35,142 nt of DNA from a virus (IMGVR_UViG_3300028840_008153:1-35142); one strand, 5' to 3'. Numbered from the stretch's first letter, positions 4,538 through 35,140 are shown. The notes: generated from the sequence alone by a model not told the origin. Translations and numbers: made by a program.

Positions 4538-5113
4538 CTAATCGAACGTGTATCCGAAGTTGCGGATGTCCTCCACGTAACGCTCCTCAACCCAGCGGCG
4601 GGCCTCCGCGTTGTACATCTCCTGGTAGGGCCGGTGGGCCCGCCGCTCCTCGAAGACCTCCTCCGGCACCTCCCGTTCGAGCAACCGACAGATCCAGATC
4701 AGATCCCTATGGAGCGTCTCGAACCGCCCGACATACCGGCACGGAAGAATGAAGTGACTGCAGGGCCGGTGCATGGCCATGCCCTTGGACACGTAATGCG
4801 GCCTGCCGGACGTGTCCGGGCAGTCGTTCTGGAGCCAGTCCATAAACAGGGTCTGATCATCCAGCTGCTCGGCGTTGATGCGCGCACAGATGGACACGAG
4901 ACGATCCCACGGGTTACGAACGAACCCGAAGGTAAACATTCGCCTCCACCGCTCGGTGCCGAAACGCCTGACCAGCCACCACGCGGGCGCGTGCCCGAAG
5001 TAATGCTCTTCGGGGTTGGCTTTCTTGCCCTGATGGGACCGCAGGCCAAGCATGATCGACAGCGACGTGCTCGCCGTCCTCGGAGTACAGAGCATGCACC
5101 AGTCTTTAATCAT
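4538..5113 (-). CDS. sulfotransferase (Sulfotransfer_2-like, PAPS-dependent)
   Basis: 5'-PSB loop TPRTASTS, 3'-PB FGFVRNPWDRLVS, YVGRFETL, C-terminal Y-x-ED-I-x-x-FGY. Confidence 0.85.
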   Translation of the reverse strand: MIKDWCMLCTPRTASTSLSIMLGLRSHQGKKANPEEHYFGHAPAWWLVRRFGTERWRRMFTFGFVRNPWDRLVSICARINAEQLDDQTLFMDWLQNDCPDTSGRPHYVSKGMAMHRPCSHFILPCRYVGRFETLHRDLIWICRLLEREVPEEVFEERRAHRPYQEMYNAEARRWVEERYVEDIRNFGYTFD

Positions 5114-5129
5114 GAGATCTCCTTGAAAA

Positions 5130-5210
5130 GCCCCACGCCGTGGGAGTCGAACCCGCCACAGGAATTTGGCCGCCCACCGCTCACCTGTTCGAGCGGCTCC
5201 GGCGTGGGAC
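5130..5210 (-). ncRNA. second tRNA-like structured element
   Basis: minus strand GTCCCACGCCG/CGGCGTGGGGC closing stem, CCGCTC/GAGCGG hairpin, T-loop GGG-TTCGACT-CCC; shares AGCGGTGGRCG with 930-1000. Confidence 0.45.
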
Positions 5211-5552
5211 CGGTTTCTTTTTGCTTCTGAGCGGCTTCATCTCTATCGTGTCGCCAGCTCGGATCTTGTAGCTGCGACTTCGTTTTCTCCCATTCACCCA
5301 GAATCGAACTTCCTCCAGCGGCGAGCAGTTCGCAAACTCTCGTATGACGTCTATGGCCTCAAACTTGGCTAAAGGCGCCCCGATGAGCTTCGGACTCTGA
5401 ATGGTTATCATGTTGAACCGAAACTTAAACAGGACGCCGCCGTAATCCTTCAGCATGGCCATCCGCGCTTCCTCTTGCGCTTGTAGGTCTTTCACGTAGG
5501 TAGTGATAACCCTCAGCGCCTGATCTATCGCCACGCCATCTACCATGCTCAC
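5181..5552 (-). CDS. protein with C-terminal beta-grasp (ubiquitin/ThiS-like) or S4-like domain; paralog of 5549-5896
   Basis: RFWVNGRKRSRSYKIRAGDTIEMKP; aligns end to end with the neighbouring ORF. Confidence 0.65.
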   Translation of the reverse strand: MSMVDGVAIDQALRVITTYVKDLQAQEEARMAMLKDYGGVLFKFRFNMITIQSPKLIGAPLAKFEAIDVIREFANCSPLEEVRFWVNGRKRSRSYKIRAGDTIEMKPLRSKKKPVPRRSRSNR

Positions 5553-5896
5553 GCGTGCCTCCTGCTGTAGGGCCTGATCACTTCCACGGTGTCGCCAGCC
5601 TTGACCACGTAGTGGGTCTGCCTCACCCTGCCGTTCACCCGGAAGCGGTAATGCTTCGGTCGTTCCGCAGCGATGATCCGCCCGGCACTCGTGCGCCAGA
5701 AGCTGGACAGGCGCGTCCCGACGAGCTTCCCGCCGTTCAACGTGAGCGTGTTGTTCCGAAACCGCACGGTCACCGCGTTGTATGCCTTCAGGATCTTGGC
5801 TTCCGCCTTCTCTGCCGCCTTGGTATCGTCCACGTACTGGCCGATTGCCATCAGGGCCTGCTGCATGGTCATGTAATCAGTCGTGTTCTCGCTCAT
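5549..5896 (-). CDS. protein with C-terminal beta-grasp (ubiquitin/ThiS-like) or S4-like domain; paralog of 5181-5552
   Basis: VTVRFRNNTLTL..GTRL...RFRVNGRVRQTHYVVKAGDTVEVIRP; ATG at 5896 coupled to upstream stop. Confidence 0.65.
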   Translation of the reverse strand: MSENTTDYMTMQQALMAIGQYVDDTKAAEKAEAKILKAYNAVTVRFRNNTLTLNGGKLVGTRLSSFWRTSAGRIIAAERPKHYRFRVNGRVRQTHYVVKAGDTVEVIRPYSRRHA

Positions 5897-6327
5897 GTCT
5901 CTCTCCCTATCACGTAGGTCTCGTATCTGCAGTTTCTCCACAGGCGCGGCTCATCGAGAACCACCTCGATTTGATACCCCCATGAAGTCTTCCTCCACCC
6001 CCGGATGTCACGACGCACGGTCACGTACGACTTGCCTCCAGGCGCCAAAAGCTCCCTGATCTCCTCGATAACTTGTGCACGGTCCCAAGGGAGCCAGATC
6101 GTGTTGAGGACATACGTGCACGTTATGGTGTCGAATGTGCCTTCGGGCTTGGTGGGAAACGAGACGCTGTCGTACTTCTCGGCACCGACGATGTCGGCGT
6201 CCTCGCCTCGTCCACACCCGAAGTCCAGGATTCTGCCTACAACCAGTTCGGCTTCACAAAGCCTTCTCATGGGGGCGGACAGCCCCCCACGCCTGATCGC
6301 CGATCGGTGGAACCGACGGGCGCTCAT
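5893..6327 (-). CDS. class I SAM-dependent methyltransferase
   Basis: motif I ILDFGCGRGED, FDTITCTYVLN, APGGKSYVTVRRD. Confidence 0.85.
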   Translation of the reverse strand: MSARRFHRSAIRRGGLSAPMRRLCEAELVVGRILDFGCGRGEDADIVGAEKYDSVSFPTKPEGTFDTITCTYVLNTIWLPWDRAQVIEEIRELLAPGGKSYVTVRRDIRGWRKTSWGYQIEVVLDEPRLWRNCRYETYVIGRET

Positions 6328-7241
6328 TTCGCTTTAGAGGCCCCTACAACACCAAAATCCCGTCTACCCTTGCGGAACACCAGATACTCGACGATCGTCT
6401 CACAGGACGCGCTGAGCAGGTCAATAGGGTAGGGCCAGACGTGTCGCACGGCGTGGTCGATCCAAACTTCGGGGATCGGCTCGAAATGGACGCTACGCGA
6501 CGTGCCGTTGACCCGGACACTCGACCAGCTGTCCTTCCACGTGATTGCCTCGGCGGTGAAGTAGCCGACGCGCACGTTGTAGGTCACGGCGCCGCCCTTC
6601 TTGATGAAGTACGGGAACCCCATCAGCCGGTAGGCGGGAGCCTTCAGCCTCTTCCTGACACGGTCTCCGATATAGATCTGGAGAACGCGTTGATCGGCCG
6701 CTTGCAGCGTCTTCACGGCCGAGGGACAGATTTTCAACAGGTGCACTGTCACGTCCCGCAATTTGCGATTCGGATTGAACATGTCCCGAATCCGGGTGAC
6801 ATGCTCATCGAACCCGCGCAGGTAACACCACGGACACAGCGGCGAACCGCAGCGCGTGCCCGTGAAGCCCTCCTCGTATCTGTCGGCGACCCAATGGCCC
6901 CCCGCCGGCTGGCAATTCAGCATCTGCCATGTCATCGTTTCCGGCAGCAGCTTCTTCTTAAAAAGCTCCACGACCTTGTGCTGATAGACGTATTGGAGCG
7001 CCAGAAGCGTGCTGCCGACCAGATGCCGCCAGCCCCTGTGCCGGCCCACGCGCCCTGCGTACCGGCAGTCCTGCTCGTGGTACTCGCGCAGCTGTCGCGC
7101 GGTGCTGGGCGCCTTTTTGACAAAGCTGATTGCGGGGGGAAGGGTCTTGCCGTGGGATTTTCGCCACACGGTCAGGTTGTCGATCAACCCGCCGTGTTGC
7201 GGCCAGATCTGAGAAAGGGTCCATATGAGCGGAGCAGCCAT
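6324..7241 (-). CDS. hypothetical basic protein with C-x4-CP-x-C zinc-binding motif
   Basis: 305-aa coupled ORF; TRCGSPLCPWC. Confidence 0.65.
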   Translation of the reverse strand: MAAPLIWTLSQIWPQHGGLIDNLTVWRKSHGKTLPPAISFVKKAPSTARQLREYHEQDCRYAGRVGRHRGWRHLVGSTLLALQYVYQHKVVELFKKKLLPETMTWQMLNCQPAGGHWVADRYEEGFTGTRCGSPLCPWCYLRGFDEHVTRIRDMFNPNRKLRDVTVHLLKICPSAVKTLQAADQRVLQIYIGDRVRKRLKAPAYRLMGFPYFIKKGGAVTYNVRVGYFTAEAITWKDSWSSVRVNGTSRSVHFEPIPEVWIDHAVRHVWPYPIDLLSASCETIVEYLVFRKGRRDFGVVGASKAK

Positions 7242-7660
7242 CAGGGCTCCTGCACGGTTACCTCAAGGTCGCCCACACTGGCCAGCTCCCTGCGCATCAC
7301 CCGTCCCAGCTGCTCGCCGTTGAGCACGCGAACCTCATTCTTGCTCACCAGCATGGACCTGAGCGTGCTGCAGTCGTAGCAGAACGTCATGGACCGCTTC
7401 TCCTCGAAGAGAAGCCACTCCCCGGGCCAGAGCCTGCGGGAGACGCGCCGGAGAAGTTTGGGGTAGTCCGGCGGGTGATTGTCCCAGTAAATGGCCTCGT
7501 AGCGTGTGATGTGACCTTTCTTTTCGTTCGCCGTCAGATTCAGGAACTCGAAGTCGTTGTCCCGAGTGACGAGCTTCATGATGGCGTCCACAACGGCGTG
7601 GACGTCCCGTACCTGCGTGGAATCGGTTAACTCCAACCAGCTGCTTACGTGTCCTTGCAT
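7241..7660 (-). CDS. hypothetical protein
   Basis: 139-aa ORF in operon. Confidence 0.65.
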   Translation of the reverse strand: MQGHVSSWLELTDSTQVRDVHAVVDAIMKLVTRDNDFEFLNLTANEKKGHITRYEAIYWDNHPPDYPKLLRRVSRRLWPGEWLLFEEKRSMTFCYDCSTLRSMLVSKNEVRVLNGEQLGRVMRRELASVGDLEVTVQEP

Positions 7661-8121
7661 CGATTCAGGATCTCCGTGCTGGAGTGCCCTGGAATGTACG
7701 GGCCTTTAAAAACGCGCCCCCCGATGGAAGGCACGAACTCCTCGCCGACGATCTTCTTGTCGGCGTAATCGCCTCCCTTGGCCAGCGCGATGGGCCGGAG
7801 GGTCTTGATGCATGCGAGCGGCGTGTCTTCTTCGAAGACCACCACGAAGTCGACCATGCGCAGCGCCAGGAGCACCATTCCCCGGTTGCTTGCCGTGTGG
7901 ACGGGACGCGACGGCCCTTTCAGCCGCGCAACCGACGCGTCACTGTTTATGGCCACGGTGATCGGGGCGCGAAGGCCCTCTCTGACGAGCGTGCGCTGGA
8001 GCCAGCAAAGAAAATTGATGTGGCCGGCGTGGATGATGTCGTAGCACCCGTTGGTGAGCGCCACGCGCCTCGATCCGAGAAAGTTGGCTAGTGATCGGGC
8101 GTCTTCCCAGTACCGCTGCAT
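7645..8121 (-). CDS. rfaE2: RfaE/HldE domain II-like nucleotidyltransferase (ADP-heptose synthase adenylyltransferase domain)
   Basis: TNGCYDIIHAGH (HxGH), INSDASVARLKGPSRPV, FEEDTP, KGGDY, HSSTEIL; start set to ATG at 8121. Confidence 0.88.
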   Translation of the reverse strand: MQRYWEDARSLANFLGSRRVALTNGCYDIIHAGHINFLCWLQRTLVREGLRAPITVAINSDASVARLKGPSRPVHTASNRGMVLLALRMVDFVVVFEEDTPLACIKTLRPIALAKGGDYADKKIVGEEFVPSIGGRVFKGPYIPGHSSTEILNRCKDT

Positions 8122-8435
8122 GACGGGCTCCCTGTTTCTGATTTCACTTGGGAACCGAGCCGCACCAGCATGCTGCCGAGAATAACGCCGAGCTGTCCCA
8201 TGTAGTTGGTCAGCGCCTTGAGCATGGCAATCAGTTCGGCGGGACCGGGATTGCGCGGACGCCACCAGCCGTTGGGAAGATCGCTCTCAAAGCTCCAGTC
8301 CACCACGATGGTGACGGACCGGACCTCCGGGATCTCCAAGAGGCTGTCGGCGGCAGCCTGGGCCAACCGGGACGCTTTCTCGTCTATGCGTTCATTCTGA
8401 GGGCTCGCTTCCTCCTTCCGTGACTCTGTCATCAT
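8088..8435 (-). CDS. hypothetical protein
   Basis: MMTESRKEE..., AGGAGGT RBS. Confidence 0.65.
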   Translation of the reverse strand: MMTESRKEEASPQNERIDEKASRLAQAAADSLLEIPEVRSVTIVVDWSFESDLPNGWWRPRNPGPAELIAMLKALTNYMGQLGVILGSMLVRLGSQVKSETGSPSCSGTGKTPDH

Positions 8436-9034: not shown

Positions 9035-9109
9035 CAGTCACCTCTATAATGAACACGCGGTCGAGTTCGGGCGCCAAACCCACGTGTCATTATAGGGTCG
9101 CCGGACTCA

Positions 9110-9226
9110 TTAGGCAAGACCGGCAGCCATGCGGTCCCCAATCTCTTTGGCGACCATGCCGACCAGCGTCTGAAGCGCTGAGAAGAGCATGACAGCCAAC
9201 GATCGGAAGAACTCAACAATGGTCAT
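9110..9226 (-). CDS. small hydrophobic peptide (38 aa)
   Basis: MTIVEFFRSLAVMLFSALQTLVGMVAKEIGDRMAAGLA with GGAGGT RBS. Confidence 0.4.
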   Translation of the reverse strand: MTIVEFFRSLAVMLFSALQTLVGMVAKEIGDRMAAGLA

Positions 9227-11048
9227 GATGACCTCCACTTCTGATACTGAACTCACCTCATACAAGAACATCGCCCGGCTCAGAGAAGAGATGAATGCCG
9301 GGCAGCCGGTTGACGAGTTGACCGCTCTCAAGACCTTCGTGGACTTCTACAAGACCAGGCCCGACACGCTCGTGCCGATCCTGGGCCTGCTCAACTTGAA
9401 AGGCCGGCCGTACTCGCTCAGGGATCATTTTGCAATGGAGCCGCTGTTCAAACTGCGGCTCCCCCGGCGGATGCTGTTCATGTGTGGCCGCCAGATCAGC
9501 AAATCGACTTCACTGGCGGCTTCCGGCATTCTGCGCGCGGCGTGTCAGCCGCATTTGTCAACGCTCGTGATAACGCCGCGCTTCGAGCAGTTGCGCCGGC
9601 TTTCGTCCAATTACTTCGCCCCCTTCATGACCAAAAGTCCCATCGTTAACGTCATGACGGATGAAAGTTGTACGAAACAGGTCCTCCAGCGGACCTTCTC
9701 GAACGGTTCCTCGGTTTTCTTCAGCTTTGCGTTCTTGGACTGCGATCGGGTCCGGGGGCTCAGTTGTGATTGGATCGACTACGACGAGGTGCAGGATCTG
9801 GATTACGAATTCCTTCCGATCATTCACGAATGCATGTCGGCCTCCAAGCTGCGGATGTCCCTCTACTCCGGTACGCCGAAGACACTGGACAACACCATCC
9901 AGGCGCTGTGGGAGGAATCCTCCCAGGCCCAGTGGGTCATCCCGTGCAGCTTGTGCGGAAAGTGGAACATGGCCACGGTGCATGAAGACCTTCTCAAAAT
10001 GATCGGCAGAAAGACCTTGGTGTGTGCGAAATGCCAGCGCCCGATCAATGCGCGCGCGGGACACTGGTATCACACGGTCAAGGCGAATATGGCCAAGTTT
10101 CAGGCTTACCACATCCCCCAGCCCATAATGCCCATGCACTATGAGGATTCGGAGAAGTGGGGCGAGCTGATTGACAAGCGTGACGGTAAGAACAATTACG
10201 ATCAGGCGCGGTTCTACAATGAGGTCCTTGGTGAAAGCTGCGACGTTGGAAACAAGCTGGTCACGATCACGGACATCAAGAAGGCTTCACGTTTGGGCGT
10301 TAATGACCTTGAGAAATGCATTGACGAGTTTCGACGTTGTAACGTTAGGGTGCTGGGAGTCGACTGGGGCGGCGGCGGGGAGGACGAGGTCTCCTTCACC
10401 ACGGCTGCGCTGGTCGGACTCCGGTCGGACGGGAAAATCGGATGTTCCTACGCGGTCCGCTTCCACGCGGGGTTCACCCACGATGAAGAGGCCCGGGCAC
10501 TGTTGCGGTTGTTCAAGGAGGGCGCCTGCCACTACTTCGCCCATGACTACGGCGGATCGGGAAGCGTGCGCGAGACCCTGATGATCCAGGCGGGCCTGCC
10601 GATCGACCGCATCGTCAACTTCATGTATGTCCGGGCGACCGCCCGGAACATGGTCCACTGGAAGCCCCCGCACGCCGGTGAGATGCGCGGGTACTTCGCG
10701 CTGGACAAGGCCCGCTCTCTGGTGCTGCAGGCCACCTGCATCAAGGGCAACGTGATCTGGCTGCCCGAGTACGAATCGAGCAAGAACGTCACCCACGATC
10801 TGCTGGCGCTGCTCGAAGACAAGCACGAGATGCCGAAGGGGGCCGATATCTACCTCGTGCGCAAGCAGCCCAAACTCCCCGATGATTTCGCGCATGCGCT
10901 CAATTATGGCTGCGTGGCTATCTGGCACATGACCAAGCGCTACCCGGACCTGAGTTCGATCCAGGGGATCAAACTGACGTCCCAGCAGCTGAGCCTGTCC
11001 TCGCCGCCCGACATGGAGGCGCTCCGCCGCACGTTGCCGCAGGAGTGA
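9189..11048 (+). CDS. terL: terminase large subunit, GpA-like (true start possibly ATG 9291)
   Basis: Walker A CGRQISKST, Walker B WIDYDEVQD, motif III YSGTPKT, CxxC pairs (PCSLCG, VCAKC), FYNEVLG, nuclease VLGVDWG. Confidence 0.92.
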   Translation: MTANDRKNSTMVMMTSTSDTELTSYKNIARLREEMNAGQPVDELTALKTFVDFYKTRPDTLVPILGLLNLKGRPYSLRDHFAMEPLFKLRLPRRMLFMCGRQISKSTSLAASGILRAACQPHLSTLVITPRFEQLRRLSSNYFAPFMTKSPIVNVMTDESCTKQVLQRTFSNGSSVFFSFAFLDCDRVRGLSCDWIDYDEVQDLDYEFLPIIHECMSASKLRMSLYSGTPKTLDNTIQALWEESSQAQWVIPCSLCGKWNMATVHEDLLKMIGRKTLVCAKCQRPINARAGHWYHTVKANMAKFQAYHIPQPIMPMHYEDSEKWGELIDKRDGKNNYDQARFYNEVLGESCDVGNKLVTITDIKKASRLGVNDLEKCIDEFRRCNVRVLGVDWGGGGEDEVSFTTAALVGLRSDGKIGCSYAVRFHAGFTHDEEARALLRLFKEGACHYFAHDYGGSGSVRETLMIQAGLPIDRIVNFMYVRATARNMVHWKPPHAGEMRGYFALDKARSLVLQATCIKGNVIWLPEYESSKNVTHDLLALLEDKHEMPKGADIYLVRKQPKLPDDFAHALNYGCVAIWHMTKRYPDLSSIQGIKLTSQQLSLSSPPDMEALRRTLPQE

Positions 11049-16640: not shown

Positions 16641-16669
16641 ATCCTAACCCCTTCAGGGGGTTATTTTAG
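16641..16669 (-). promoter_or_regulatory. promoter motif CTAAA-N18-TAGGAT
   Basis: conserved motif; -35 box overlaps the upstream stop codon. Confidence 0.6.
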
Positions 16670-17364
16670 AGGCTGTAGTGCATGAGCTTGACGGACTCGC
16701 CGTCGATCTCGACGTAGGTGTTGGAGCCTTTCCACTCCCCGGCATTCACGTACTCGATCCGTCCGTCTCCACGGACGTGCTCGGGCGTGTGCAGGTGGCC
16801 CATCACCAGAACGTCAAAACCCATCTTGCCGTAGTGCCTCCGAGCCTTCTCCCGCATCCCGTCCTTCAAGCGCTGGTAGCTGTTGCGGTCCTTGAAGTAG
16901 GAAGGAGCGTCGTAGGCCCGTGGTTTGGGAGGCTTCATGAAGAGGTGCTCGCAGACCTTGCGGGTCCACGAACTGAGGCGGTAGAGGGGGTAATACCACA
17001 ACATCATGTGGTCGAACTGATGACCGTGGATGACGGCCACCTTGCGCTTGCCCGCACGCACGGCCGTGAAGTGGGGCCGGACGGGCACGGTGTTGGTGTC
17101 GAGAACGGGGTCTTCCAGGTAGGCGCTGTCGTGGTTGCCCAGCAGGTACTCAACAATGACCTTTTTGGCGTAGAGCCGATCGAAGAAGGTTTGCAGGCTC
17201 TTGTGCTTCTGTCGAAGGGTCTCGGCGTCCTCGTCCCAGAGATCAAACAGGTCCCCGGCAATGATCAGGCGGTCACATTCGAGCGTGAACAGGAAGCTCT
17301 TGAAGGCTTCCAGCTCGCAGCGGACGCTGCCAATGTGGATGTCCGACACGATAACCGTCTTCAT
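16666..17364 (-). CDS. calcineurin-like metallophosphoesterase, LpxH-like
   Basis: SDIHIG, AGDLFD, GNHD, HGHQFD, GHLH, YVNAGEW. Confidence 0.85.
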   Translation of the reverse strand: MKTVIVSDIHIGSVRCELEAFKSFLFTLECDRLIIAGDLFDLWDEDAETLRQKHKSLQTFFDRLYAKKVIVEYLLGNHDSAYLEDPVLDTNTVPVRPHFTAVRAGKRKVAVIHGHQFDHMMLWYYPLYRLSSWTRKVCEHLFMKPPKPRAYDAPSYFKDRNSYQRLKDGMREKARRHYGKMGFDVLVMGHLHTPEHVRGDGRIEYVNAGEWKGSNTYVEIDGESVKLMHYSL

Positions 17365-19316: not shown

Positions 19317-22000
<2,684 letters not shown>

Positions 22001-22535: not shown

Positions 22536-22565
22536 ATTTTAACGCCATGTGGGGGTGTGATTTAG
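22536..22565 (-). promoter_or_regulatory. promoter motif CTAAA-N19-TAAAAT
   Basis: conserved motif; -35 box overlaps the stop of 22562-25207. Confidence 0.7.
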
Positions 22566-25207: not shown

Positions 25208-26516
25208 GCGCGGCCCTGCCGACTTCTACGATGATGCCAACCAACAACAACTATACACGCTGGACCGACTGTATGGCCTCCCGAAGTTCGTAAAGGAAGC
25301 CGAACAGGAGGAGAAGGCAGGCATCAATCGATTACCTTCTCACGTTTTCGCAGATCGAGTCCGGCGCAAGTTCCCTTGCCACACGAAGGCGGCAACGTGG
25401 CTTGCCCAGGCGTACTTCTGCCTGGCTGAACCCCAATACTCTAAGGAAGAAAGGGCGCTTGTTCAAGACCGCATCACCAAACAAGCGGCTTATTGGGGTG
25501 TGAAAAATACGACCGACCGGCTTCGGACGACGTGGCAGAAGCTCGCCTCGACCGAACGGCCGGAGGTCGGCGACGCGGATCACGCGCTCGTGGTGGACAT
25601 GGGAGAAGGCAAAAAGATGCGCCGAATGCCCATGCCCAACGCGATGTCGGTCAAGCTGGCCGGTGAGTACCTGTTTGCCAACCGGTACAATTACCCGTAT
25701 CAGTGGCGCCGCGCGGCTTCCCGCCGAATCCTGAAAAAGGCCATGGAGTACGACGCCAAATTCAGGGAGGGCGAGAAGGTGGCTGGGGCCGGATTGGGCG
25801 TCCTGCAGTTCGACGACGACACGCAGGAATACCTGGAACGTGCCAGCGGCTTCGGCATGTGCCATCCCAAACAGGCCGCCGAGCAGCTCTCCCGCCGGGC
25901 GCTGATGATCTCGTCCCGCTTCAATGACGTGCGAGAGAAGATCGCCACGATCGCGCAGGAACTCCACGAGATGGAGGAGTGTGATGCGGAACTGCTCCAC
26001 AAGGTTGCCGAAGCCGTGGATTGGGCCGATCGGCAAACCGGACTCTGCAAGCAGTACCACCTCGGAATCGATCTGCCTGAAGAAATGTTCTTTCAGGTCT
26101 TGGAGAAAGAGGCCGAAGCGGTCATCAACAACCACGTCACGCTGACGACCGGCAACAGCTGGCCGATCGAGGTCTTCTCGCATCTGCCCGCCCAGAAGGT
26201 CGCCGAGGTGCTTGGCGGCGATATCGCCGACGCGCTCGAAGGCAACCACGGTCTTCTGGACCTTGAGAAATTCGCAGAGATCGCGCCCACGCTTCCGCGT
26301 CCCGACGCCGAGCTTCTTGAAACGGCGCTGAAAGCCGCCGCCGAAGAGGCGTACGAGAAGGACGCGACCCTGATGAAGCAAGGCCGTGCCCCCCTCAGCG
26401 CGAACTTCAAGTTCGACAAGGATGAATGGACCAACTGGCACAAACGAATGGTGGCTGCGGACCCGCGCGGCGTTGGAGTTGAATCCCCCCTCAGGCACAA
26501 CCAACAAGTCCTCTAA
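25206..26516 (+). CDS. hypothetical protein, K-x-A motif rich, possibly head-associated
   Basis: ATG at 25206 after GGAGGAG; FADRVRRKFPCHTKAATW; 436 aa. Confidence 0.75.
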   Translation: MRGPADFYDDANQQQLYTLDRLYGLPKFVKEAEQEEKAGINRLPSHVFADRVRRKFPCHTKAATWLAQAYFCLAEPQYSKEERALVQDRITKQAAYWGVKNTTDRLRTTWQKLASTERPEVGDADHALVVDMGEGKKMRRMPMPNAMSVKLAGEYLFANRYNYPYQWRRAASRRILKKAMEYDAKFREGEKVAGAGLGVLQFDDDTQEYLERASGFGMCHPKQAAEQLSRRALMISSRFNDVREKIATIAQELHEMEECDAELLHKVAEAVDWADRQTGLCKQYHLGIDLPEEMFFQVLEKEAEAVINNHVTLTTGNSWPIEVFSHLPAQKVAEVLGGDIADALEGNHGLLDLEKFAEIAPTLPRPDAELLETALKAAAEEAYEKDATLMKQGRAPLSANFKFDKDEWTNWHKRMVAADPRGVGVESPLRHNQQVL

Positions 26517-26526
26517 GGAGTCGGGC

Positions 26527-27609
26527 ATGAGTGACGCAGAAGAACTGGGCGAACTGATCGGCCTCGAATTTGAAAAAGAGGCCAGACGGCCGGGTATGAT
26601 GCGCGCCACGGGACGAAAGGCACCGCGTCAGCAACCCGCGCAACGTCGAGCACAGCGTGATCGTCCGCAGCAACGGCGACCTCGGCAGCGCCCTCAGAGC
26701 CGACAGACCGCCGGTTCGGGCGGTCCCCGGAAGCCGGCACCCAAGGCACAACCGCTGGCAAGGCGTCCCTCGGGCGCCATGGCCACGACACGAGCGCCGG
26801 CCCCCACACCCGCAGCGCGAAAGCCGCTGGTCACGCCTGCACCCTCCGGTACGGCCGGAACCATCACACCCCCTCCGGGCGGCGCGATGGTCCGACGCCC
26901 TGAAACCCGGTTGGCTGGCGGCGCGAAGCCCGTCGTTGAAGTGCTGCCTCCGCAGGCTGCTCTTCCGTCCCCGGCAAGGCAGCTGGGTATGCGTGTCGGG
27001 CGTTCAACCAGAGTTGACGTGCCGCCTGCAGCGTCGGCACCTGCGGCGCCGGCCCTTCCGGCACCGACGGCAGCCCCCCAGCCCGTGAGCGCAAAGCCGC
27101 CTGCGGGCGCTCGTACTGTTCGCCGAAAGCGCGGACTCCGAGGGGGACAGCCACAACCTGATCTGCCGCCGCCTCCCCCGCGCGCGATGCCGCAACCCAC
27201 GACGCCTCCGGGCGCTCGTGCCGTCAAACGAAAGCGGAAGCTCAGGGGCGCGGAACTCGCACCAGCGACTACACCGGCGGCAACCGCGCCGGCAGCGGCT
27301 GCGCCAGCAGGCGCACAAACGCCTGAATCCCGGTTCATGGCCGAAGCGGCCAAAAGAACCCCAACAGAGCCAGCACCGGCCGCAGCCCCCGAATTTGTTC
27401 CTTTGGCTCAACGGCTCGGACAGGCCATCGGTGTTCAGCCGCAAACCATCAACCGTCTTGGCAGTGTTGGACTGGGCGTGGGCGGCGGCCTGATGGCACG
27501 AAGCGCCTTGGCTGACCCGCACGAGGAAGCTCTGCGGCAGTACCTGCTGGCAAACCCGTTCATGTACGGGCAAATGAACCCCTACGCCGCGTCCATGATG
27601 ATGTACTAA
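26527..27609 (+). CDS. Pro/Ala/Arg-rich low-complexity protein
   Basis: ATG at 26527 after AAGGAG; internal repeat PP(A)GAR-x-V-x-RKR-x-LRG. Confidence 0.7.
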   Translation: MSDAEELGELIGLEFEKEARRPGMMRATGRKAPRQQPAQRRAQRDRPQQRRPRQRPQSRQTAGSGGPRKPAPKAQPLARRPSGAMATTRAPAPTPAARKPLVTPAPSGTAGTITPPPGGAMVRRPETRLAGGAKPVVEVLPPQAALPSPARQLGMRVGRSTRVDVPPAASAPAAPALPAPTAAPQPVSAKPPAGARTVRRKRGLRGGQPQPDLPPPPPRAMPQPTTPPGARAVKRKRKLRGAELAPATTPAATAPAAAAPAGAQTPESRFMAEAAKRTPTEPAPAAAPEFVPLAQRLGQAIGVQPQTINRLGSVGLGVGGGLMARSALADPHEEALRQYLLANPFMYGQMNPYAASMMMY

Positions 27610-27613: not shown

Positions 27614-28354
27614 ATGCGAATCGACAAACGGCCCTTCATGAGACAGCTCGCCGACCCGGATGCAATCGGGTCGGTGCTGCTCGTTGGGCTGCTTGACGAG
27701 TATGGCACGGAGATGTTCGGCTGGGAGCCACAAACGCTGGACATGGAAGTGAAGCATGATTGGAGCGTGTCCATCCCGCAGGTCAACAAGGACAAGATCT
27801 GGGCGTTGGTGACCGAGCTGACCACCAACCTCTTCTACACCAGCCTCGACGCGTTCACCCACATCTGTAATGCACTGAACGGCTCCGGGGCCGACTTCCA
27901 GAACTTCGACTTTGCCACCGTACAGGAGATGTGCTGGGCCATCGCCGAAGTGCAGTTGCTGGACCCGCCCGAAGAGGGCGAGATGTTCAACGAAGAGATT
28001 CGTTCCTACATGGCCACGCGCCTGAAGGACGAAGGCTTCGAGCGCGTGCCGAAGATTCTGAAGCCCTATGTCGAAATGCCCGACAACGACGAAACGATCG
28101 ACGGCGTACTGCAGGATGACGGCATCGAAGCTAAGGCTTTTTGGGATCGTCAGATGCGGGAGGTGTTGTCGATCGACCAGTTCGTCCGGGAGCGGCTCCA
28201 CAAGCTGTTCGTGGATCTGGCCTCCCTTCCGCTTGAGAACGCTGATTCCGAAGCAATGAAAGCGACGTTACAGCGCGCCGGTAAAGTTTTGGCAGGACAA
28301 TCGCAACAGACAGCACGGGAAGAGGAATCCGTTCGACCTGCTCCAGTGTTGTGA
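27614..28354 (+). CDS. acidic hypothetical protein
   Basis: 246-aa ORF with GC-rich third codon positions. Confidence 0.75.
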   Translation: MRIDKRPFMRQLADPDAIGSVLLVGLLDEYGTEMFGWEPQTLDMEVKHDWSVSIPQVNKDKIWALVTELTTNLFYTSLDAFTHICNALNGSGADFQNFDFATVQEMCWAIAEVQLLDPPEEGEMFNEEIRSYMATRLKDEGFERVPKILKPYVEMPDNDETIDGVLQDDGIEAKAFWDRQMREVLSIDQFVRERLHKLFVDLASLPLENADSEAMKATLQRAGKVLAGQSQQTAREEESVRPAPVL

Positions 28355-28993: not shown

Positions 28994-29004
28994 GGTGTTC
29001 TCCA

Positions 29005-30004: not shown

Positions 30005-30382
30005 TTAGAAGGTATGGCTGACGACGCCTGACGGGCCCGGCACGTGGAAGACCACCTTGTCGGCCTTGAGCAGGGATTTGAACAGCCCCTTCTGGCTCTC
30101 GCTGAGCCCGGCCAGAGCGACCTTGAGGCCGGTCAGCGCCGCCATCCGCTCGTTACGCTGGCCCCTGCTGCCGCAGCCGCCACAAGTGCCCGTGGCTATC
30201 TTGGTGGAGATCCTGAAGAAAGGGAACTTGGAGGTAACGTCGGAGCGCTTCGTCAGCGCAAGCAGCACGCCGTCGGTCAGAACGACCTTGCCCCGTTTCC
30301 GGGGCTTGAGCGGCACGGCCGGACGATCGATCTCACGAGCTACTGGAAGACGACGAAGAGGACGACGAGGGGAAACTGCCAA
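30005..30382 (-). CDS. basic protein with CxxC; start uncertain; paralog of 30778-31134
   Basis: LT......KFPFF...CGGCG pattern. Confidence 0.55.
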   Translation of the reverse strand: MAVSPRRPLRRLPVAREIDRPAVPLKPRKRGKVVLTDGVLLALTKRSDVTSKFPFFRISTKIATGTCGGCGSRGQRNERMAALTGLKVALAGLSESQKGLFKSLLKADKVVFHVPGPSGVVSHTF

Positions 30383-30767
30383 AGGTCACCTCCTCCGCCA
30401 GGGTCAGAGTGTCCATGTTCTCCAAGGTCCTGACCAGCTCGGTGAAGTCGTTCTGGATCTTCTCCCAGGCGTCTTCGAGCAATTTCAGGTTCCTGAAGAT
30501 GATGTCGATCTCGGTCAGGCGATAGAAGTCCTTCCCGCTAACCGGGGCGTCCCGAGGGTACTCCTCGATATCGGCCGGCGAACACACGTGCGAAAATTCG
30601 GCCCCATATTCCGTCCCGCCGCCCGCTGGCGGCATCACCTGGTAGGCAAACAGCGCATCGTCCACGCCGCTGACCTGCGAGACCTTCACACGCATGCGGT
30701 AGCCCTGCGTGCGCCCCTCCACGTAGGAGGTCATTCCATACCGCTGGAGCTTGATTCCGATCGCCAT
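30333..30767 (-). CDS. putative structural protein with C-terminal poly-Ser
   Basis: 144-aa ORF ending in FP plus 11 Ser. Confidence 0.7.
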   Translation of the reverse strand: MAIGIKLQRYGMTSYVEGRTQGYRMRVKVSQVSGVDDALFAYQVMPPAGGGTEYGAEFSHVCSPADIEEYPRDAPVSGKDFYRLTEIDIIFRNLKLLEDAWEKIQNDFTELVRTLENMDTLTLAEEVTFGSFPSSSSSSSSSSS

Positions 30768-30777
30768 GCGGAGCCCC

Positions 30778-31134
30778 CTAGATGTTGAGAACCACGTTCT
30801 GACCGTTCTCAGTATACTGCAGGGTGATGGGAGTGCCAGGTTTAAGGGCGAAGCGCCGCGTGACGTAGAAACGCAGCTTCGGCAACCCGTTGGGGTCCCG
30901 CTTGGACTCGTCCACCACCAGCCGCCCGAATGCGTTGGACAGGGCGTTCATCGCGCGCGTGCGGGCGCCCTTGTGGCAGGCTTTGCAGTGGCGCGGCAGC
31001 TTTCGATGGATGCTCAGCGCCGTGCCCTTCATGGGCGTCAGGAAGGGCACTTCCACGTAAAGAGCCGGGTCCTCGGTCAATCGGCTGACCATGTTGGCGT
31101 CCAGGTTGACGGAGGTCATAGACATCTGATCCAC
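30778..31134 (-). CDS. basic protein with CxxC
   Basis: 118-aa ORF, VPFL...CKACH. Confidence 0.65.
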   Translation of the reverse strand: MDQMSMTSVNLDANMVSRLTEDPALYVEVPFLTPMKGTALSIHRKLPRHCKACHKGARTRAMNALSNAFGRLVVDESKRDPNGLPKLRFYVTRRFALKPGTPITLQYTENGQNVVLNI

Positions 31135-32783
31135 TCCGCAAGATCAACCGTCGTCCCACCATACTGGCGAACGGCCTCCCCCAGCGTAACCGAAAACTGG
31201 TCCGGGGGAACCCTCACATCAGGCCATTTCATGTCGTTGAGCTGGTCCGCGTAGGCTACGAAAAAGCCCCTGCCGGGATGGAATGTCTGCCGTATAGCCC
31301 CGTTACGCGCCTGCGTGTCAAAGGGGCGCTTCTTGAAGAATGGGGCAGTCTGAATCAACTGGATCTGCGCCTCGTTCAGGGGAGACCGGTAGATCGCCCC
31401 GCCCAGCGAGGCGCGGCGCGCTTTCATTTGATCGAGAATGTCCCAGACCCACGCCGGGCCTGCCGGGTGGGCGGGACGGCTCATCCACACGAACCAGTTG
31501 CCCGGCTTGACCAGCTTCAGCGCCCGGTGCGCCATGACGGTCTTACCCGGACGACTGGAAGCCTGAATGCAGACGATGTTGTTCTCATGGGCCCACTGCC
31601 GGAGCTGAGGATGCTCCCCGTTGACGGCCACAATGAAACTGGCCTTCGCGTAGCGAGTGTTCTCCACGATGAACTTCGCATAGGACGGCGCCTTGGCATC
31701 ATCCGGCTCCACGTAGATGACCACGGTTACCGGCTGCTCATCCACTAGGGGCTGCGCGTCGGCCACGTCTGGCATCTTCGGGACCTGCACGGTCATGGGG
31801 GCTCCCAGCTTGCAGATCCCCTGATCGAAATACCACTTCCAGTTCTCGATGACCATCTCGGGCGTGATCAGCTGCAAGCAGCGTGGAAGCTGGACGCCGT
31901 TCTGCCGCACCTGGTTGGTACACAGATCCCCGGCCGTGCCGATACGGCTTTTCCAGCACCCATGATTGTGGCAACATTCGAGCTGGCCGATCGTGTGAAT
32001 GTAGCGGTGCTCGATGAAGTTGTCGTCGGGAGGCGGGTTCCAGTCGGGAAGGCCCAGCCGCATGTTCACCAGCCGGTTTTCCTTGTTGTAGGCTTCCCAC
32101 CACCAAGGCTCCCGTCCGCCACCGATAACCACACAGGGCTTGTTGAAGGCCGCAGCGATGTGCATCAGGCACGTCACGATGCAGATCACCCCTTGGGAGT
32201 GGTAAATCAATTGCAGGAGCTGCCGGAAGGAGGTTTTCTTCACGAGGTCGTAGGCGCCTATCATGGGCGGGTGGATATGCGAGCCGCCGCCCACCTGGAC
32301 CATGGTCACGTCTTTGGAGAGCACATTGACAACCTTCTGCCACCAGCATTTGTCCCACCATTTGGCCGTATAGTCCCGCTTGCCCCCGCTGACAAAGACC
32401 CAATAGGGTTTGTCCGGCGTGATCAGGGGCTCGGTGGCTTCCTTCTGCGACAGATGCAGATCCGGCCGGAAGTCGGTCAGGTAGGCGCCCGTACCCATCG
32501 TGTGGTTCAAGCCCGCCAGCATGCCCCACATGAAGTGGGCCCGATTCTGGTTGGACTTGTGGACGTTGTATTTGCCGACGTGGTATTTGGCCACGACCTG
32601 CCGGCCGGGACTCTTTCGGTTCAGATCGACGTAGGGGTTGTGCTGGAAGACCTGGTTCTCACTGGTGTCCATGGAGAACTGAAAACGGCCGGGGTATTGC
32701 TTGGAAATGTCACGGATCGCTGCCGTCAAGACGATCAGGTCCCCGGGGCTCTGCGTGTTTCGCAGTTTGATCCGTTCTTTCAT
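31116..32783 (-). CDS. GT9-like heptosyltransferase fused to a GT2-like C-terminal domain
   Basis: QSPGDLIVLTAAIRDI, MVQVGG, DLVKKTSFRQLLQLIYHS, LMHIAAAFNKPCVVIGG, Cys-rich CC..HGCW...C...PRCL..ITPEMV. Confidence 0.8.
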   Translation of the reverse strand: MKERIKLRNTQSPGDLIVLTAAIRDISKQYPGRFQFSMDTSENQVFQHNPYVDLNRKSPGRQVVAKYHVGKYNVHKSNQNRAHFMWGMLAGLNHTMGTGAYLTDFRPDLHLSQKEATEPLITPDKPYWVFVSGGKRDYTAKWWDKCWWQKVVNVLSKDVTMVQVGGGSHIHPPMIGAYDLVKKTSFRQLLQLIYHSQGVICIVTCLMHIAAAFNKPCVVIGGGREPWWWEAYNKENRLVNMRLGLPDWNPPPDDNFIEHRYIHTIGQLECCHNHGCWKSRIGTAGDLCTNQVRQNGVQLPRCLQLITPEMVIENWKWYFDQGICKLGAPMTVQVPKMPDVADAQPLVDEQPVTVVIYVEPDDAKAPSYAKFIVENTRYAKASFIVAVNGEHPQLRQWAHENNIVCIQASSRPGKTVMAHRALKLVKPGNWFVWMSRPAHPAGPAWVWDILDQMKARRASLGGAIYRSPLNEAQIQLIQTAPFFKKRPFDTQARNGAIRQTFHPGRGFFVAYADQLNDMKWPDVRVPPDQFSVTLGEAVRQYGGTTVDLAEWIRCL

Positions 32784-33582
32784 TCTTTAAGAACCCTTTC
32801 CATCGCGTTCTGTCCATGATAGCCCTTGCGAGGAATGGCTTCAATTCCTTGACGGAGCGCTCGAACGGAAATTGTTCGCTGGCTGTCTTGCGCACGAGCG
32901 CACTGGGAAGCTGTTCCGCGTAGGGCCGTGCCGCATCACGGCCTTCCGGCGTCTGATACATGACGCCACTTTTGCCGTGCTGAAGCGTTTCAGGGTAGGT
33001 GCCCCACGCGGGCGCGAGCACAGGGATGCCGAACTCCAACGCCTTCCAGTGGGGAAGATCGATGCCGTCCCAGCCCATGATCTCGCAGACCTCAAGCGAC
33101 GGCACCACGGTCTGCTCCTCAATGAACGGGTAGGTCACGAAGTAGTTGTGAGTCCACCCGCACACGTCCTGCCTGCCGCAGGTGTAGGCGCGGCAGTATT
33201 CCGTGCTGTATGACCGCCAGTAGGTAAAAGGATTCTGGTAGTCGATCCAGGCTTCCACGACGGGTGCGGCACCGTCCCAGGCCAGAAAGTCGATGCCTCG
33301 GAAGATATCAGCGTGCCACTCCTCCGTGGCCACGATAACATCACCTTCTCTGGCCTTGTCGAGGTGTCGAAGCGTTCGATCGCAGTAGGAGATCTGCCAC
33401 GGGTCGCCCTGATGCTGGACGAGCACACGCTTGACCATGTGCTCGTCACAGACATCACGCCCTAAAACGGCAACCTCGAAGCCGCAGGCTTCAATCACTC
33501 TGCACAGCTTCTGGAGGCGTTTCTTTCTCGCCTCCATCACCTTCGGCTTTACCTCCGTCAGAATCCACGCTCGGTTCTTCAT
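32710..33582 (-). CDS. degenerate GT4-like glycosyltransferase paralog
   Basis: ALEFGIPVLAPAWGTYPETLQHGKSG aligns with the upstream GT4 but lacks EPFG. Confidence 0.6.
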   Translation of the reverse strand: MKNRAWILTEVKPKVMEARKKRLQKLCRVIEACGFEVAVLGRDVCDEHMVKRVLVQHQGDPWQISYCDRTLRHLDKAREGDVIVATEEWHADIFRGIDFLAWDGAAPVVEAWIDYQNPFTYWRSYSTEYCRAYTCGRQDVCGWTHNYFVTYPFIEEQTVVPSLEVCEIMGWDGIDLPHWKALEFGIPVLAPAWGTYPETLQHGKSGVMYQTPEGRDAARPYAEQLPSALVRKTASEQFPFERSVKELKPFLARAIMDRTRWKGFLKNERTDQTAKHAEPRGPDRLDGSDP

Positions 33583-35140
33583 CCTTGTTGTCCTTGACCA
33601 TCTTGATGATCTTCTCGGCGCTCTTGGCCATGTCCTTGCCGATGTCGTACTTCCGTTCGATGTGCAGAGCGAGGTACTTGTTGGTCACGGTGCCGCCAAA
33701 GCCCCGCAGCGTTCCGGTGTTCCATACGTGGCGGGTCCAATACTCCTCGGGGAAGGCTTCAAGGAACATCTTCTCGGTGAGGTTGTGCGGGTGGCCCGGG
33801 CAAACACCCAGATCGATCCACTCGAACAGGCGCACGCACGCGCCGGGCTTCACCGTGGCCAGCTTGATCTTGGACAGGATCTTCTGGGGATTGTCGACGT
33901 GTTGCAGGCAGTTGTAGATCCAGACTTCATCAAAGACGATCCCGCGCATGCCTTTCATCCGACCGTCGAACATGTCTTCGGCCTTGGAGTTGAACAGCCG
34001 AATGCCGGCGTCCTTGTACTGCTGCTTCACCTTCTTCGACATGGGCAGCGGATCGACGCCGACGGCCTCGTCGAACTTGGCGCGGAGCAGCATTGAAGCG
34101 GGGCCGCACCCAACGTCGAGAATGGCCTTCCCGCTCATGTCCAGATCAGCCGGCAGCTCCATGAGCCGAGCGTAGGTCTTCTGCTTCTTGATCTCTTCGT
34201 CCCAGTGCGGGCCGTGCTCCTTGCCCCACCAGCCGGCCTCCCACTCAATGGCCTCCTCCCAACCCGACTTGATCTCGGGAGCCACGTGCTCGGGAAACTC
34301 GGGCTCCTTCGTCGTCGCGCCTTTCGGGTAGGTCTTGTGAAGCCAGTTCAGGTGCGGGCGCTTGGGGTGTTCGATTGGCCAGCCCACACCTCGCAGGTTC
34401 AGGATCATCTGGAAGAACTCCTCGTACATCGGCGCGATGCGCTCAAGCGAGTAGTTCTTCACAGCCCACTTATGGCAGTCCTCATTGTCGATGTTGTCGA
34501 TGTTGCCGGCAGCCCATACGAACTGCTCCAGCGTGCGGCAGCGGTAGCCCGTCACGCCATGGAGCACCGTCTCCGTGTAGGCGCCCCAATCCGTGGTGAT
34601 CACCGGGCACCCGGTCATCTGAAGCTCCACGTTGACCCCGCCAAACGGCTCCAGATAGCGGGAGGGCACGAACGCGGCCTTGCAGGAGCCCATGATCCCG
34701 ATGCGCTCCTGGACGCCAACCGGGGGTTTGTACTCGACATGGGGGTTGCCAATCAGAAAGCGTTCCGGCCCTCGTTCGTCCGTGGGCCCGACCAGAAGCA
34801 GCCGCGCGCCGATGCGCTTGGTCACGTCGATGGCGATGCCCACGCCCTTGTCGTCGTTGAGGCGACCGATGTAGAGGAAACGGTCACCCCGCTTGTTCTT
34901 CGGGGAGTAGGGGAACATCTCGGGATCGAAGGCGTTGGGGATCACTACGTCGTACCAGCTGTCGCCCTGATGCTTGTTTTCCTTGCCCCAGTGGAAATGG
35001 AGCCACGCGTAGGACTCGAAGACCCTGTACGGGGAGAAGGTGTGATGATAGCCGATTCCGCTCTCGACGGTCAGCTGCGGAACGTTCCTCGTGGCCAGGG
35101 CCTGCGTGCCGCCCCAGGTCGCGCAGATGATGGCGTGGTG
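33491..35140 (-). CDS. GT4 glycosyltransferase fused to a class I SAM methyltransferase (5' end outside window)
   Basis: FLYIGRL..DKG, PSRYLEPFGGVNVE, GCPVITTDWGAYTETV; ILDVGCGP, YNCLQHVDNP; frame open to the window edge. Confidence 0.88.
   Translation of the reverse strand, partial: HHAIICATWGGTQALATRNVPQLTVESGIGYHHTFSPYRVFESYAWLHFHWGKENKHQGDSWYDVVIPNAFDPEMFPYSPKNKRGDRFLYIGRLNDDKGVGIAIDVTKRIGARLLLVGPTDERGPERFLIGNPHVEYKPPVGVQERIGIMGSCKAAFVPSRYLEPFGGVNVELQMTGCPVITTDWGAYTETVLHGVTGYRCRTLEQFVWAAGNIDNIDNEDCHKWAVKNYSLERIAPMYEEFFQMILNLRGVGWPIEHPKRPHLNWLHKTYPKGATTKEPEFPEHVAPEIKSGWEEAIEWEAGWWGKEHGPHWDEEIKKQKTYARLMELPADLDMSGKAILDVGCGPASMLLRAKFDEAVGVDPLPMSKKVKQQYKDAGIRLFNSKAEDMFDGRMKGMRGIVFDEVWIYNCLQHVDNPQKILSKIKLATVKPGACVRLFEWIDLGVCPGHPHNLTEKMFLEAFPEEYWTRHVWNTGTLRGFGGTVTNKYLALHIERKYDIGKDMAKSAEKIIKMVKDNKDEEPSVDSDGGKAEGDGGEKETPPEAVQSD

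Follow-up and report, generated by a model that had tools for sequence, protein, structure and literature searches.

Putative heptosylation of poly-serine tags by a GT9-type enzyme of an uncultured marine jumbo phage

Background

The question raised by this locus is what a large phage does with a heptosyltransferase-like enzyme that is encoded among its late genes. The locus is found in a stretch of 35,142 nucleotides of viral DNA (IMGVR_UViG_3300028840_008153:1-35142, referred to here as the window), and the enzyme is a fusion of a glycosyltransferase (GT) domain of family GT9 with a second domain of the GT-A fold. The original prediction held that the phage coats its fibres with a heptose-based, methylated and sulfated glycan, with remodelling of host lipopolysaccharide (LPS) as the alternative. 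Comparison of the GT9 enzyme and its neighbours across viral and bacterial genomes points, with a probability of roughly 0.55, to a cytoplasmic pathway of GT9-type heptosylation acting on poly-serine (poly-Ser) tags of proteins of the virion gene block. To our knowledge, the only proteins known to be O-heptosylated are a few enterobacterial autotransporters, and actinobacteriophages are the only phages whose virions have been shown to be glycosylated. A search of the literature turned up no description of GT9 or HldE in phages, nor of poly-Ser tags.

The window covers the opening 35 kb of an IMG/VR record that is 163 kb long and estimated to be 78% complete, and searches for absent genes in this phage cover that record. 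Three comparison sets were used, comprising 80 viral GT9 loci, 80 bacterial GT9 loci and 20 near-complete GT9-bearing related phages. All the parts originally listed are present in the window: an HldC-like enzyme, the GT9/GT-A fusion, a GT4-methyltransferase fusion, a GT4-like open reading frame (ORF), a sulfotransferase, a terminase, three G-X-T collagens and three poly-Ser tracts.

The GT9/GT-A fusion enzyme

31116-32783, minus strand: GT9/GT-A fusion enzyme, 555 aa, by Pfam PF01075 (Glyco_transf_9) and an AlphaFold2 (AF2) model
genome 140697-141554, minus strand: stand-alone GT2-like protein with an intact DDD in WFDDDS

The Glyco_transf_9 profile matches residues 79-239 of the fusion enzyme with 45.8 bits, against a cut-off of 22 bits. 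In the AF2 model (pLDDT 88.9, pTM 0.84), residues 1-325 form a GT-B fold of the GT9 kind and residues 347-555 form a GT-A fold. The first Foldseek match is TibC (4RAP, E 3e-11), and WaaF is matched at E 2e-9. The VIA Z scores of residues 1-325 are 23.6 for the Veillonella GT9 3TOV, 21.5 for WaaF 1PSW, 20.6 for TibC 4RAP and 19.9 for WaaC 2H1H, with 249-269 aligned residues and a root-mean-square deviation of 2.8-3.4 in these superpositions. When a profile built from the homologue alignment was compared to PDB sequences, the top match reached only E 0.047 (WaaF 1PSW).

Over 27 homologues with identities down to 35%, the motifs SPGD15, GGKxDxxAKWW, AAAFNKPC and CCx4GCWx11Cx13C are invariant, as are the columns of K135 and K141; D15 is a candidate for the catalytic Asp, as a possible counterpart of WaaC D13 or TibC D110. 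The GT9 domain carries a conserved cysteine cluster (C270, C271, C276, C288 and C302), located 23-55 residues ahead of the end of the GT-B core in a loop modelled at a pLDDT of about 61. Among the bacterial homologues, [ST]PGD is found in 75 of 80 and CCx(3-4)GCW in 79 of 80. It can be seen that the gene is not a stray LPS gene; it is part of a GT9 subfamily marked by this cysteine cluster.

The GT-A half resembles PcManGT, BcsA, hyaluronan synthase and TarP (Z 15-17). It has no DxD motif, with WFVWMSRPA standing where the distant homologues P0081 and P0118 and the stand-alone paralogue show W(F)DDDS. The earlier description of a GT9/GT2 fusion is accurate for the GT9 profile and fold and for the GT-A fold, with the correction that the GT-A half lacks DxD; the GT2 profile PF00535 gave no match in a search of the genome. 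In 36 related phages, a homologue of the 140697-141554 protein is fused to, or adjoins, the rear of the GT9 domain. The window phage has lost DxD from its fused GT-A copy, and its intact copy lies about 110 kb away.

Distribution and ancestry of the subfamily

At E <= 0.001, 989 homologous proteins were found in the protein collection, many of them on contigs of 140-211 kb. A single-sequence scan of viral contigs returned one locus, and the viral set was obtained by an alignment-based scan. The subfamily is present on at least 91 viral contigs, mostly of 180-216 kb with terminal repeats, and on at least 226 bacterial contigs, mostly of Planctomycetota, Verrucomicrobiota and Acidobacteriota with some Proteobacteria. 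One or two GT9 loci per genome were counted in the seven bacterial genomes examined.

Phylogeny of 160 GT9 domains places the window copy in an all-viral clade of 51 members (support 0.90). This clade indicates long residence in phages and points to an old, vertically kept phage gene, not a recent host-derived moron. The GT genes are located in a long co-directional late block together with fibre-like proteins.

Poly-serine runs and the serine-tagged neighbour

17377-18396, minus strand: protein of 339 aa carrying Ser7 internally, encoded immediately downstream of the collagens; no family match
30333-30767, minus strand: 144-aa protein with a C-terminal Ser11, the most conserved neighbour of the GT9 gene

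Besides these two tracts, the window contains an S12 tract in the collagen-like protein at 20570-22000. In the 50,488 called residues, 17 runs of five or more serines were seen against 0.04 expected, and the only other homopolymers in the genome are of E (3) and R (1). All six serine codons are interleaved inside the runs, so these are not slippage repeats. Beyond the window, 13 further ORFs with serine tracts occur at 35-103 kb, all on the minus strand except the short plus-strand ORF 43965-44243. All runs of five or more serines but one are in minus-strand ORFs of the late block, which spans 17-103 kb. In five tagged proteins, the run stands at the extreme C-terminus.

The association extends to other genomes. 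Runs of six or more serines are present in 35 of the 80 viral and 44 of the 80 bacterial GT9 loci, where eleven other homopolymers are near zero, and nearly all serine runs around GT9 share its strand. The bacterial density of such runs per 100 kb is 31.7 within 1 kb of GT9, 18.9 at 1-2.5 kb and 6.5-9.2 beyond 2.5 kb. Control DNA, consisting of twenty 20-kb regions (400 kb) from seven of the same bacterial genomes, has a poly-Ser density of 0.75 per 100 kb, and poly-Ser is 25-40-fold denser beside bacterial GT9 than in this control. Counted per locus, the contrast is modest (22 of 80 loci near GT9 against 8-11 of 80 further out); run density and the comparison with control DNA form the stronger test. 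These statistics, like the domains, their conservation and the genomic associations, are direct observations.

In 40 viral loci, GT9 is followed on its own strand, as the next gene or the one after, by a gene for a homologue of the 30333-30767 protein. A terminal tag of four or more serines is carried by 30 of these 40 orthologues, on the N side in 22 and on the C side in 13, some having both. The equivalent counts for five other conserved neighbours are 0/41, 1/33, 0/36, 0/19 and 0/19. The tag is kept while it shifts between the termini, which argues that it does not serve as a linker; it resembles a site for recognition or modification, and the 30333-30767 protein is judged from this pattern to be the best candidate acceptor of GT9. 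Its AF2 model (pLDDT 87.7) shows a beta-sheet and a long helix, a fold for which no known match was found (best E 0.05 in Foldseek against PDB and BFVD; best VIA-wide Z 5.6).

In at least 10 Planctomycetota loci, one operon encodes a GT9 protein, a bifunctional HldE and a giant poly-Ser RHS-repeat protein. One example has an enzyme of 1132 aa with the order GT9-GT9-methyltransferase-methyltransferase and an RHS protein with several Ser9-Ser24 tracts. In the loci L113, L108, L110, L114, L131, L132, L137 and L166, from metagenome-assembled genomes of Planctomycetota, RHS proteins of >1100-2000 aa with Ser7-Ser24 tracts were noted. This gene arrangement ties together the GT9 subfamily, heptose activation and poly-Ser proteins, in cellular genomes and therefore in a setting other than that of the phage loci.

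The preference of the original prediction for protein over LPS as acceptor is thus strengthened, by poly-Ser enrichment, by the terminal tags and by the Planctomycetota operon of GT9, HldE and poly-Ser RHS protein.

Supply of ADP-heptose

7645-8265, minus strand: HldC-like heptose-1-phosphate adenylyltransferase, by CTP_transf_like (E 1.9e-9) and TIGR02199 (rfaE_dom_II)
genome 117748-119106, outside the window: HldA-like heptose-7-phosphate kinase, by TIGR02198

The HldC-like protein matches TIGR02199 over model positions 11-143 of 144 with 139.9 bits (E 4.9e-41; cut-off 181.5), the next unrelated model reaching 31 bits, and its top PDB match is the 'putative cytidylyltransferase' 5X9Q (E 2.6e-21). 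The HldA-like protein scores 201.2 bits against TIGR02198 (cut-off 345), with the next family, ribokinase, at 47 bits. Two of the four steps to ADP-heptose are probably encoded by the phage, as separate HldA- and HldC-like proteins.

Among the 20 relatives, rfaE II is present in seven and rfaE I in eight, fused in four and split in the others. An rfaE-II homologue is also found 0.2-5.4 kb from GT9, on the same strand, in 16 of the 80 bacterial loci. Based on the phage genes, the relatives and the bacterial neighbours, ADP-heptose is most likely the donor, with help from the host, as had been proposed.

Collagen-like proteins

18408-19313, minus strand: collagen-like fibre protein, 39 G-X-Y triplets, Thr at Y in 54%
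19317-20570, minus strand: collagen-like fibre protein, 82 triplets, Thr at Y in 79%
20570-22000, minus strand: collagen-like fibre protein, 37 triplets, Thr at Y in 76%, with the internal Ser12
genome 100399-103197: fourth collagen-like fibre, with two Ser tracts and tail-fibre PHROG and YadA-head matches

The C-terminal domain of 19317-20570 is common to 20570-22000 (E 2e-31) and to the fourth collagen, and Ser tracts occur in two of the four collagens of the phage.

Collagen, a possible acceptor in the original prediction, was considered as the conserved acceptor of GT9 and was rejected: with 80 loci in each set, only 15 viral loci and one bacterial locus have a collagen-like ORF within 10 kb of GT9, and many of these ORFs are G-X-Q, not G-X-T. 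Collagen fibres thus appear to be a trait of these phages, not the conserved partner of the enzyme; from the locus comparison, the conserved acceptor is predicted to be poly-Ser, not collagen. In the two collagens that bear them, the Ser tracts would be the modified sites.

Accessory enzymes and gene layout

33491-35470 (past the window end), minus strand: fusion of GT4 (Glycos_transf_1) and an S-adenosylmethionine (SAM) methyltransferase, 659 aa, by profile matches
32710-33582, minus strand: degenerate GT4-like ORF, 290 aa
4538-5113, minus strand: Sulfotransfer_2 (PF03567) enzyme, 191 aa, 37.4 bits against a 22-bit cut-off
5893-6327, minus strand: SAM-methyltransferase, 144 aa, by profile matches; top NCBIfam model DNA-phosphorothioation-associated methyltransferase

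The genes follow the order GT4-methyltransferase, degenerate GT4-like ORF and GT9, and their reading frames overlap, so the three are probably co-translated. The top PDB match of the GT4-methyltransferase is 7FG9 'Glycosyl transferase' (E 4.8e-20). Its homologues occur in six of the 20 relatives, five of which also have rfaE genes, and fusions of GT9 with a methyltransferase are present in bacteria. Given its place beside GT9, its co-occurrence with rfaE and these bacterial fusions, glycan extension and O-methylation by this enzyme would be a reasonable second step. Methylation of the glycan is plausible because such GT-methyltransferase fusions recur.

The ORF at 32710-33582, described earlier as a GT4 paralog, is present, and its likeness to the neighbouring GT4 is weak (pairwise E 6e-5 to the GT4 C-lobe; Glycos_transf_1 E 0.005), with no Pfam or NCBIfam match at default thresholds. 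A homologue is found in two GT9 loci, and the product is possibly a non-catalytic partner.

The sulfotransferase looks intact, with the motifs PRTASTS and RNPWDRLVS, which we take to be 5'-PSB-like and 3'-PB-like motifs for binding 3'-phosphoadenosine-5'-phosphosulfate (PAPS). Its homologues occur in only two of the 20 relatives, its gene is separated from the GT operon by 26 kb and shares an accessory region with a Rep-like gene, and no homologue was found near any GT9 locus in the neighbour comparison of viral and bacterial loci. The sulfated glycan of the original prediction is therefore not upheld, and the enzyme can be only weakly linked to the glycan. The small methyltransferase at 5893-6327 may also stand outside the system. 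Neither of the two is assigned to the proposed pathway.

A single contiguous gene cluster was rejected. The terminase, a Rep_1-like gene and many unrelated ORFs intervene between the parts of the 30-kb span, and the genes are dispersed both here and in the closest complete relative.

Proposed pathway and rival explanations

From these observations we infer a donor, an acceptor, an order of steps, a virion location and a biological role. The HldA-like kinase and the HldC-like adenylyltransferase would raise the supply of ADP-heptose, with the isomerase and phosphatase steps given by the host, and phages without rfaE could use host ADP-heptose. The GT9 domain would then move heptose onto the serine hydroxyls of homopolymeric tags or linkers on late-block proteins. 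The first acceptor would be the Ser-tailed 30333-30767 protein, followed by fibre-like proteins that carry Ser tracts, among them two of the phage's four collagens. The GT4-methyltransferase and the GT2-like enzyme at 140697-141554 would probably extend and O-methylate the glycan. Virion appendages would in this way gain a glycan coat that is hydrophilic and resists proteases.

A broader reading, which we hold tentatively and give slightly less than an even chance, is that of a widespread, so far undescribed protein glycosylation system composed of the Cys-finger GT9, dedicated ADP-heptose enzymes and homopolymeric serine as a portable tag. Jumbo phages would coat many virion proteins with (methyl-)heptose glycans through N- or C-terminal Ser tags, and Planctomycetota, Verrucomicrobiota and Acidobacteriota would apply the same module to giant secreted RHS-type proteins. 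If so, a poly-Ser tag and one enzyme family would account for hundreds of Ser runs, so far unexplained, in environmental phages, the PVC-group and Acidobacteriota; large phages would be seen to invest in their own nucleotide-sugar supply for decoration of the particle; and a simple tag-and-enzyme pair would be available for glyco-engineering.

Several observations weigh against heptosylation of poly-Ser tags. Differences in Foldseek and Z scores are so small that the structural models cannot separate LPS-type from protein-type GT9s, and no acceptor class can be assigned from structure. In NCBIfam, the enzyme is weakly closest to LPS heptosyltransferase I (TIGR02193, E 3.4e-10, 39.7 against 185 bits), and the Aah/TibC profile TIGR04414 has no match at E <= 1 in the whole record, so that the suggested kinship with TibC/AAH did not extend to sequence level. 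There is no run of six or more serines within 10 kb of GT9 in 45 of the 80 viral loci, and 10 of the 40 orthologues of 30333-30767 have no Ser tag. Most Ser-tract proteins are without a family or fold assignment; they are called virion proteins from their position in the late block, and the virion location of most of them is likewise a matter of gene position. The enzyme genes are spread across 4.5-141 kb of the genome, and 12 of the 20 relatives have no rfaE genes. GmhA and GmhB were not found in the record by SIS_2, TIGR00213 and TIGR01656 searches; the sole candidate phosphatase is a HAD-like domain inside the ORF at 89715-95171, which might supply the GmhB step.

The likeliest rival, less probable than the main reading but still of considerable weight, accepts part of the system: GT9 and its GT-A partner would put a sugar other than heptose on the Ser tags, and the other enzymes would have unconnected roles, for example in taking over host metabolism or in modifying small molecules or nucleic acids. 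Some GT9 members do use donors other than heptose. Dispersal of the enzymes at 4.5, 6, 8, 31-35, 118 and 141 kb is in agreement with this, as are the closest complete relative, whose HldC, sulfotransferase, HldA and GT genes are tens of kb apart, the many phages with GT9 and no rfaE, the rarity of the sulfotransferase and the NCBIfam affinity of the small methyltransferase to DNA phosphorothioation. However, HldE adjoins GT9 in 16 bacterial loci, GT9 is fused to methyltransferases in bacteria, five of the six relatives with GT4(-methyltransferase) also carry rfaE genes, and phages without rfaE can take ADP-heptose from the host.

Remodelling of the host envelope is more doubtful still. Here GT9, the GT4-methyltransferase and the ADP-heptose enzymes would act on the LPS core or a lipid-linked glycan of the host, for example in superinfection block or receptor change, and poly-Ser would be a flexible linker common in this lineage. 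As far as we know, all biochemically characterised GT9 enzymes except the bacterial autotransporter heptosyltransferases (BAHTs) act on LPS, and this knowledge speaks for an envelope role together with the top NCBIfam model, the scores of WaaF and the Veillonella GT9, which are as high as that of TibC, an LpxH-like phosphoesterase at 16666-17364 and a host that is diderm as judged from a lipobox spanin. On the other hand, the bacterial homologues, at one or two copies per genome, stand in poly-Ser/RHS/HldE operons where loci were examined and not in waa clusters, and poly-Ser is locally enriched 25-40-fold. Terminal Ser tags join nothing and hence are not linkers. Moreover, GT9 has been kept vertically in the 51-member all-viral clade at a fixed late-block position, and the relatives, with their terminal repeats, are not obviously temperate.

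DNA hypermodification, in which the nucleotidyltransferase and GT-B enzymes would put heptose on a modified base of phage DNA, is highly improbable: a metagenomic phage cluster of cytidylyltransferase, HAD/APH enzyme and GT-B that heptosylates 5-hydroxymethylcytosine (5hmC) offers a precedent (Pyle et al., bioRxiv 10.1101/2023.12.21.572611), and this phage has a CTP_transf-like enzyme, a sugar kinase, a HAD-like domain and GT-B enzymes, but no thymidylate-synthase-like (PF00303) or C5-cytosine methyltransferase (PF00145) match was found in the 163-kb, 78% complete record, the published DNA GTs are T4-betaGT-like and not GT9, and the poly-Ser association and the bacterial RHS operons would be left unexplained.

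Genome context and other features of the window

The phage is an uncultured marine tailed phage of about 200 kb. GC content is about 60%. The full stretch is present in two metagenome studies that are independent of each other, a sediment study and a seawater study; no RNA dataset is listed as containing it. Its GT9 protein is also recorded on a contig of 198.5 kb. The GT9-bearing relatives are mostly of 180-216 kb, several with direct terminal repeats, and the closest are of 200-211 kb. The label 'provirus' given to the IMG/VR record is therefore doubtful, considering the 198.5-kb contig and the direct terminal repeats of the closest relatives.

9189-11048, plus strand: gpA-type large terminase, by profile and sequence match, sharing only 22-26% identity with any cultured phage
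22562-25207, minus strand: 881-aa protein with an N-terminal Cys-rich, zinc-ribbon-like motif; no family match
16666-17364, minus strand: calcineurin-like metallophosphoesterase, top NCBIfam model LpxH (UDP-2,3-diacylglucosamine diphosphatase), E 5e-13, below the cut-off
5181-5941, minus strand: two tandem paralogous ORFs of about 125 aa each, with weak ThiS/S4-like C-terminal matches, between sulfotransferase and methyltransferase
6324-7241, minus strand: Rep_1-like (HUH, rolling-circle) ORF, 305 aa, ESM Atlas feature score 0.96, structure TM 0.57-0.60
26386-27609, plus strand: possible ORF of 400 aa, Pro/Ala/Arg-rich and of low complexity

Most proteins of the window and genome have no Pfam, PHROG or NCBIfam match. 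The same holds, in searches of PHROGs, Pfam and NCBIfam, for the conserved GT9 neighbours 25122-26516, 27614-28354 and 22562-25207 and for the Ser-tract proteins at 35-72 kb. A homologue of 22562-25207 is kept 4.6-10.6 kb from GT9 in about 20 related phages. ORFs near GT9 match tail-fibre and head-decoration PHROGs, and weak major-head and protease matches are located at 73-78 kb of the genome.

The phosphoesterase gene 16666-17364 immediately follows the fibre and poly-Ser genes on their downstream side, and its product could cleave a nucleotide-sugar or act on lipid A precursors. The ORF at 6324-7241 was considered as a kinase or GT of the heptose cluster and was dropped, as the ESM Atlas groups it with Rep_1 replication proteins. 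Such a gene is unusual in a phage of 200 kb and may be the sign of a small inserted element that carries accessory genes. At 26386-27609, GC content reaches its maximum (64%) and several alternative frames are open on either strand, so that the coding frame, if there is one, may be another.

Outside the window, a minus-strand ORF of 1818 aa (genome 89715-95171) has regions like the beta subunit of multisubunit RNA polymerase as well as the HAD-phosphatase-like domain, which matches PHROG 1238 ('phosphoheptose isomerase') at E 8e-26 and Pfam HAD models weakly. A second RNA-polymerase-beta-like ORF is seen at 84090-85928. On these two ORFs, the phage is assigned to the RNA-polymerase-encoding jumbo phages.

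Comparison with known systems

In the heptosylating cluster of Pyle et al. (bioRxiv 10.1101/2023.12.21.572611), a cytidylyltransferase-like enzyme and a sugar kinase/phosphatase likewise make activated heptose for a phage GT-B enzyme. The target, however, is 5hmC in DNA, which needs C5-MT/5mYOX or ThyS-like enzymes, and the GT is T4-betaGT-like, not GT9.

The G-X-T repeats that invite comparison with BclA are present in the phage; collagen occurs near GT9 in the small fraction of loci given above, often as G-X-Q. By analogy, BclA-like glycosylation of threonine in the G-X-T repeats is possible, without comparative support.

WaaC and WaaF (2H1H, 6DFE, 1PSW) belong to the same Pfam family and share the fold (Z 19.3-21.5), give the best sequence-profile matches, and lead to the expectation of ADP-heptose as donor. 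The window GT9 differs in scoring far under the family cut-offs and in having an additional Cys-cluster insertion and a GT-A domain. It is also set among poly-Ser proteins, not in waa clusters, and belongs to a conserved phage lineage.

Virion glycosylation in mycobacteriophages places glycans on the C-termini of virion subunits, for which shielding has been proposed (Freeman et al. 2023, Cell Host Microbe, as cited in PMC12619734). As far as that citing article describes them, both cases have phage-encoded glycosyltransferases adjoining structural genes. On the same description, the mycobacteriophage systems differ in their actinobacterial hosts and other enzyme families and have neither an ADP-heptose pathway nor homopolymeric Ser tags. 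Their modification has been shown experimentally, whereas that of the window phage is deduced from genes.

In Gram-positive cocci, GtfA and GtfB carry out cytoplasmic O-glycosylation of Ser-rich adhesin tracts by means of a GT-B enzyme and a partner that is GT-like but not catalytic. In the window, such a role could fall to the degenerate GT4-like ORF and to the GT-A domain that lacks DxD. However, GtfA/GtfB use a GT4 with GlcNAc as donor, in contrast to a GT9 with heptose here, and the phage has no accessory Sec system.

The BAHTs, TibC and AAH, are the nearest parallel in what is proposed, and the window GT9 should nonetheless not be filed among them, since it belongs to a distinct GT9 subfamily and lacks two of the four testable BAHT features. 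TibC has an N-terminal beta-barrel at residues 1-97 and a Cys4 iron finger at Cys339/342/358/370 (eLife 2014, PMC4358343; PDB 4RAP/4RB4). The window GT9 is without the beta-barrel, as residue 1 of the model aligns to TibC 95 (range TibC 95-391). It has no match to TIGR04414 and carries a C-terminal GT-A-fold domain. Its acceptors would be disordered Ser tags on phage or RHS proteins, as compared to serines in the folded beta-helix repeats of autotransporters, and the neighbours of GT9 are poly-Ser-tagged phage proteins or RHS proteins, with no autotransporter beside it. What is shared is the GT9 fold and, as proposed here, cytoplasmic O-heptosylation of many serines from ADP-heptose. Furthermore, the Cys4 finger of TibC precedes the end of the aligned range by 21-52 residues and the cysteine cluster of the window GT9 precedes the end of the core by 23-55, suggesting that a metal knuckle common to both enzymes is plausible.

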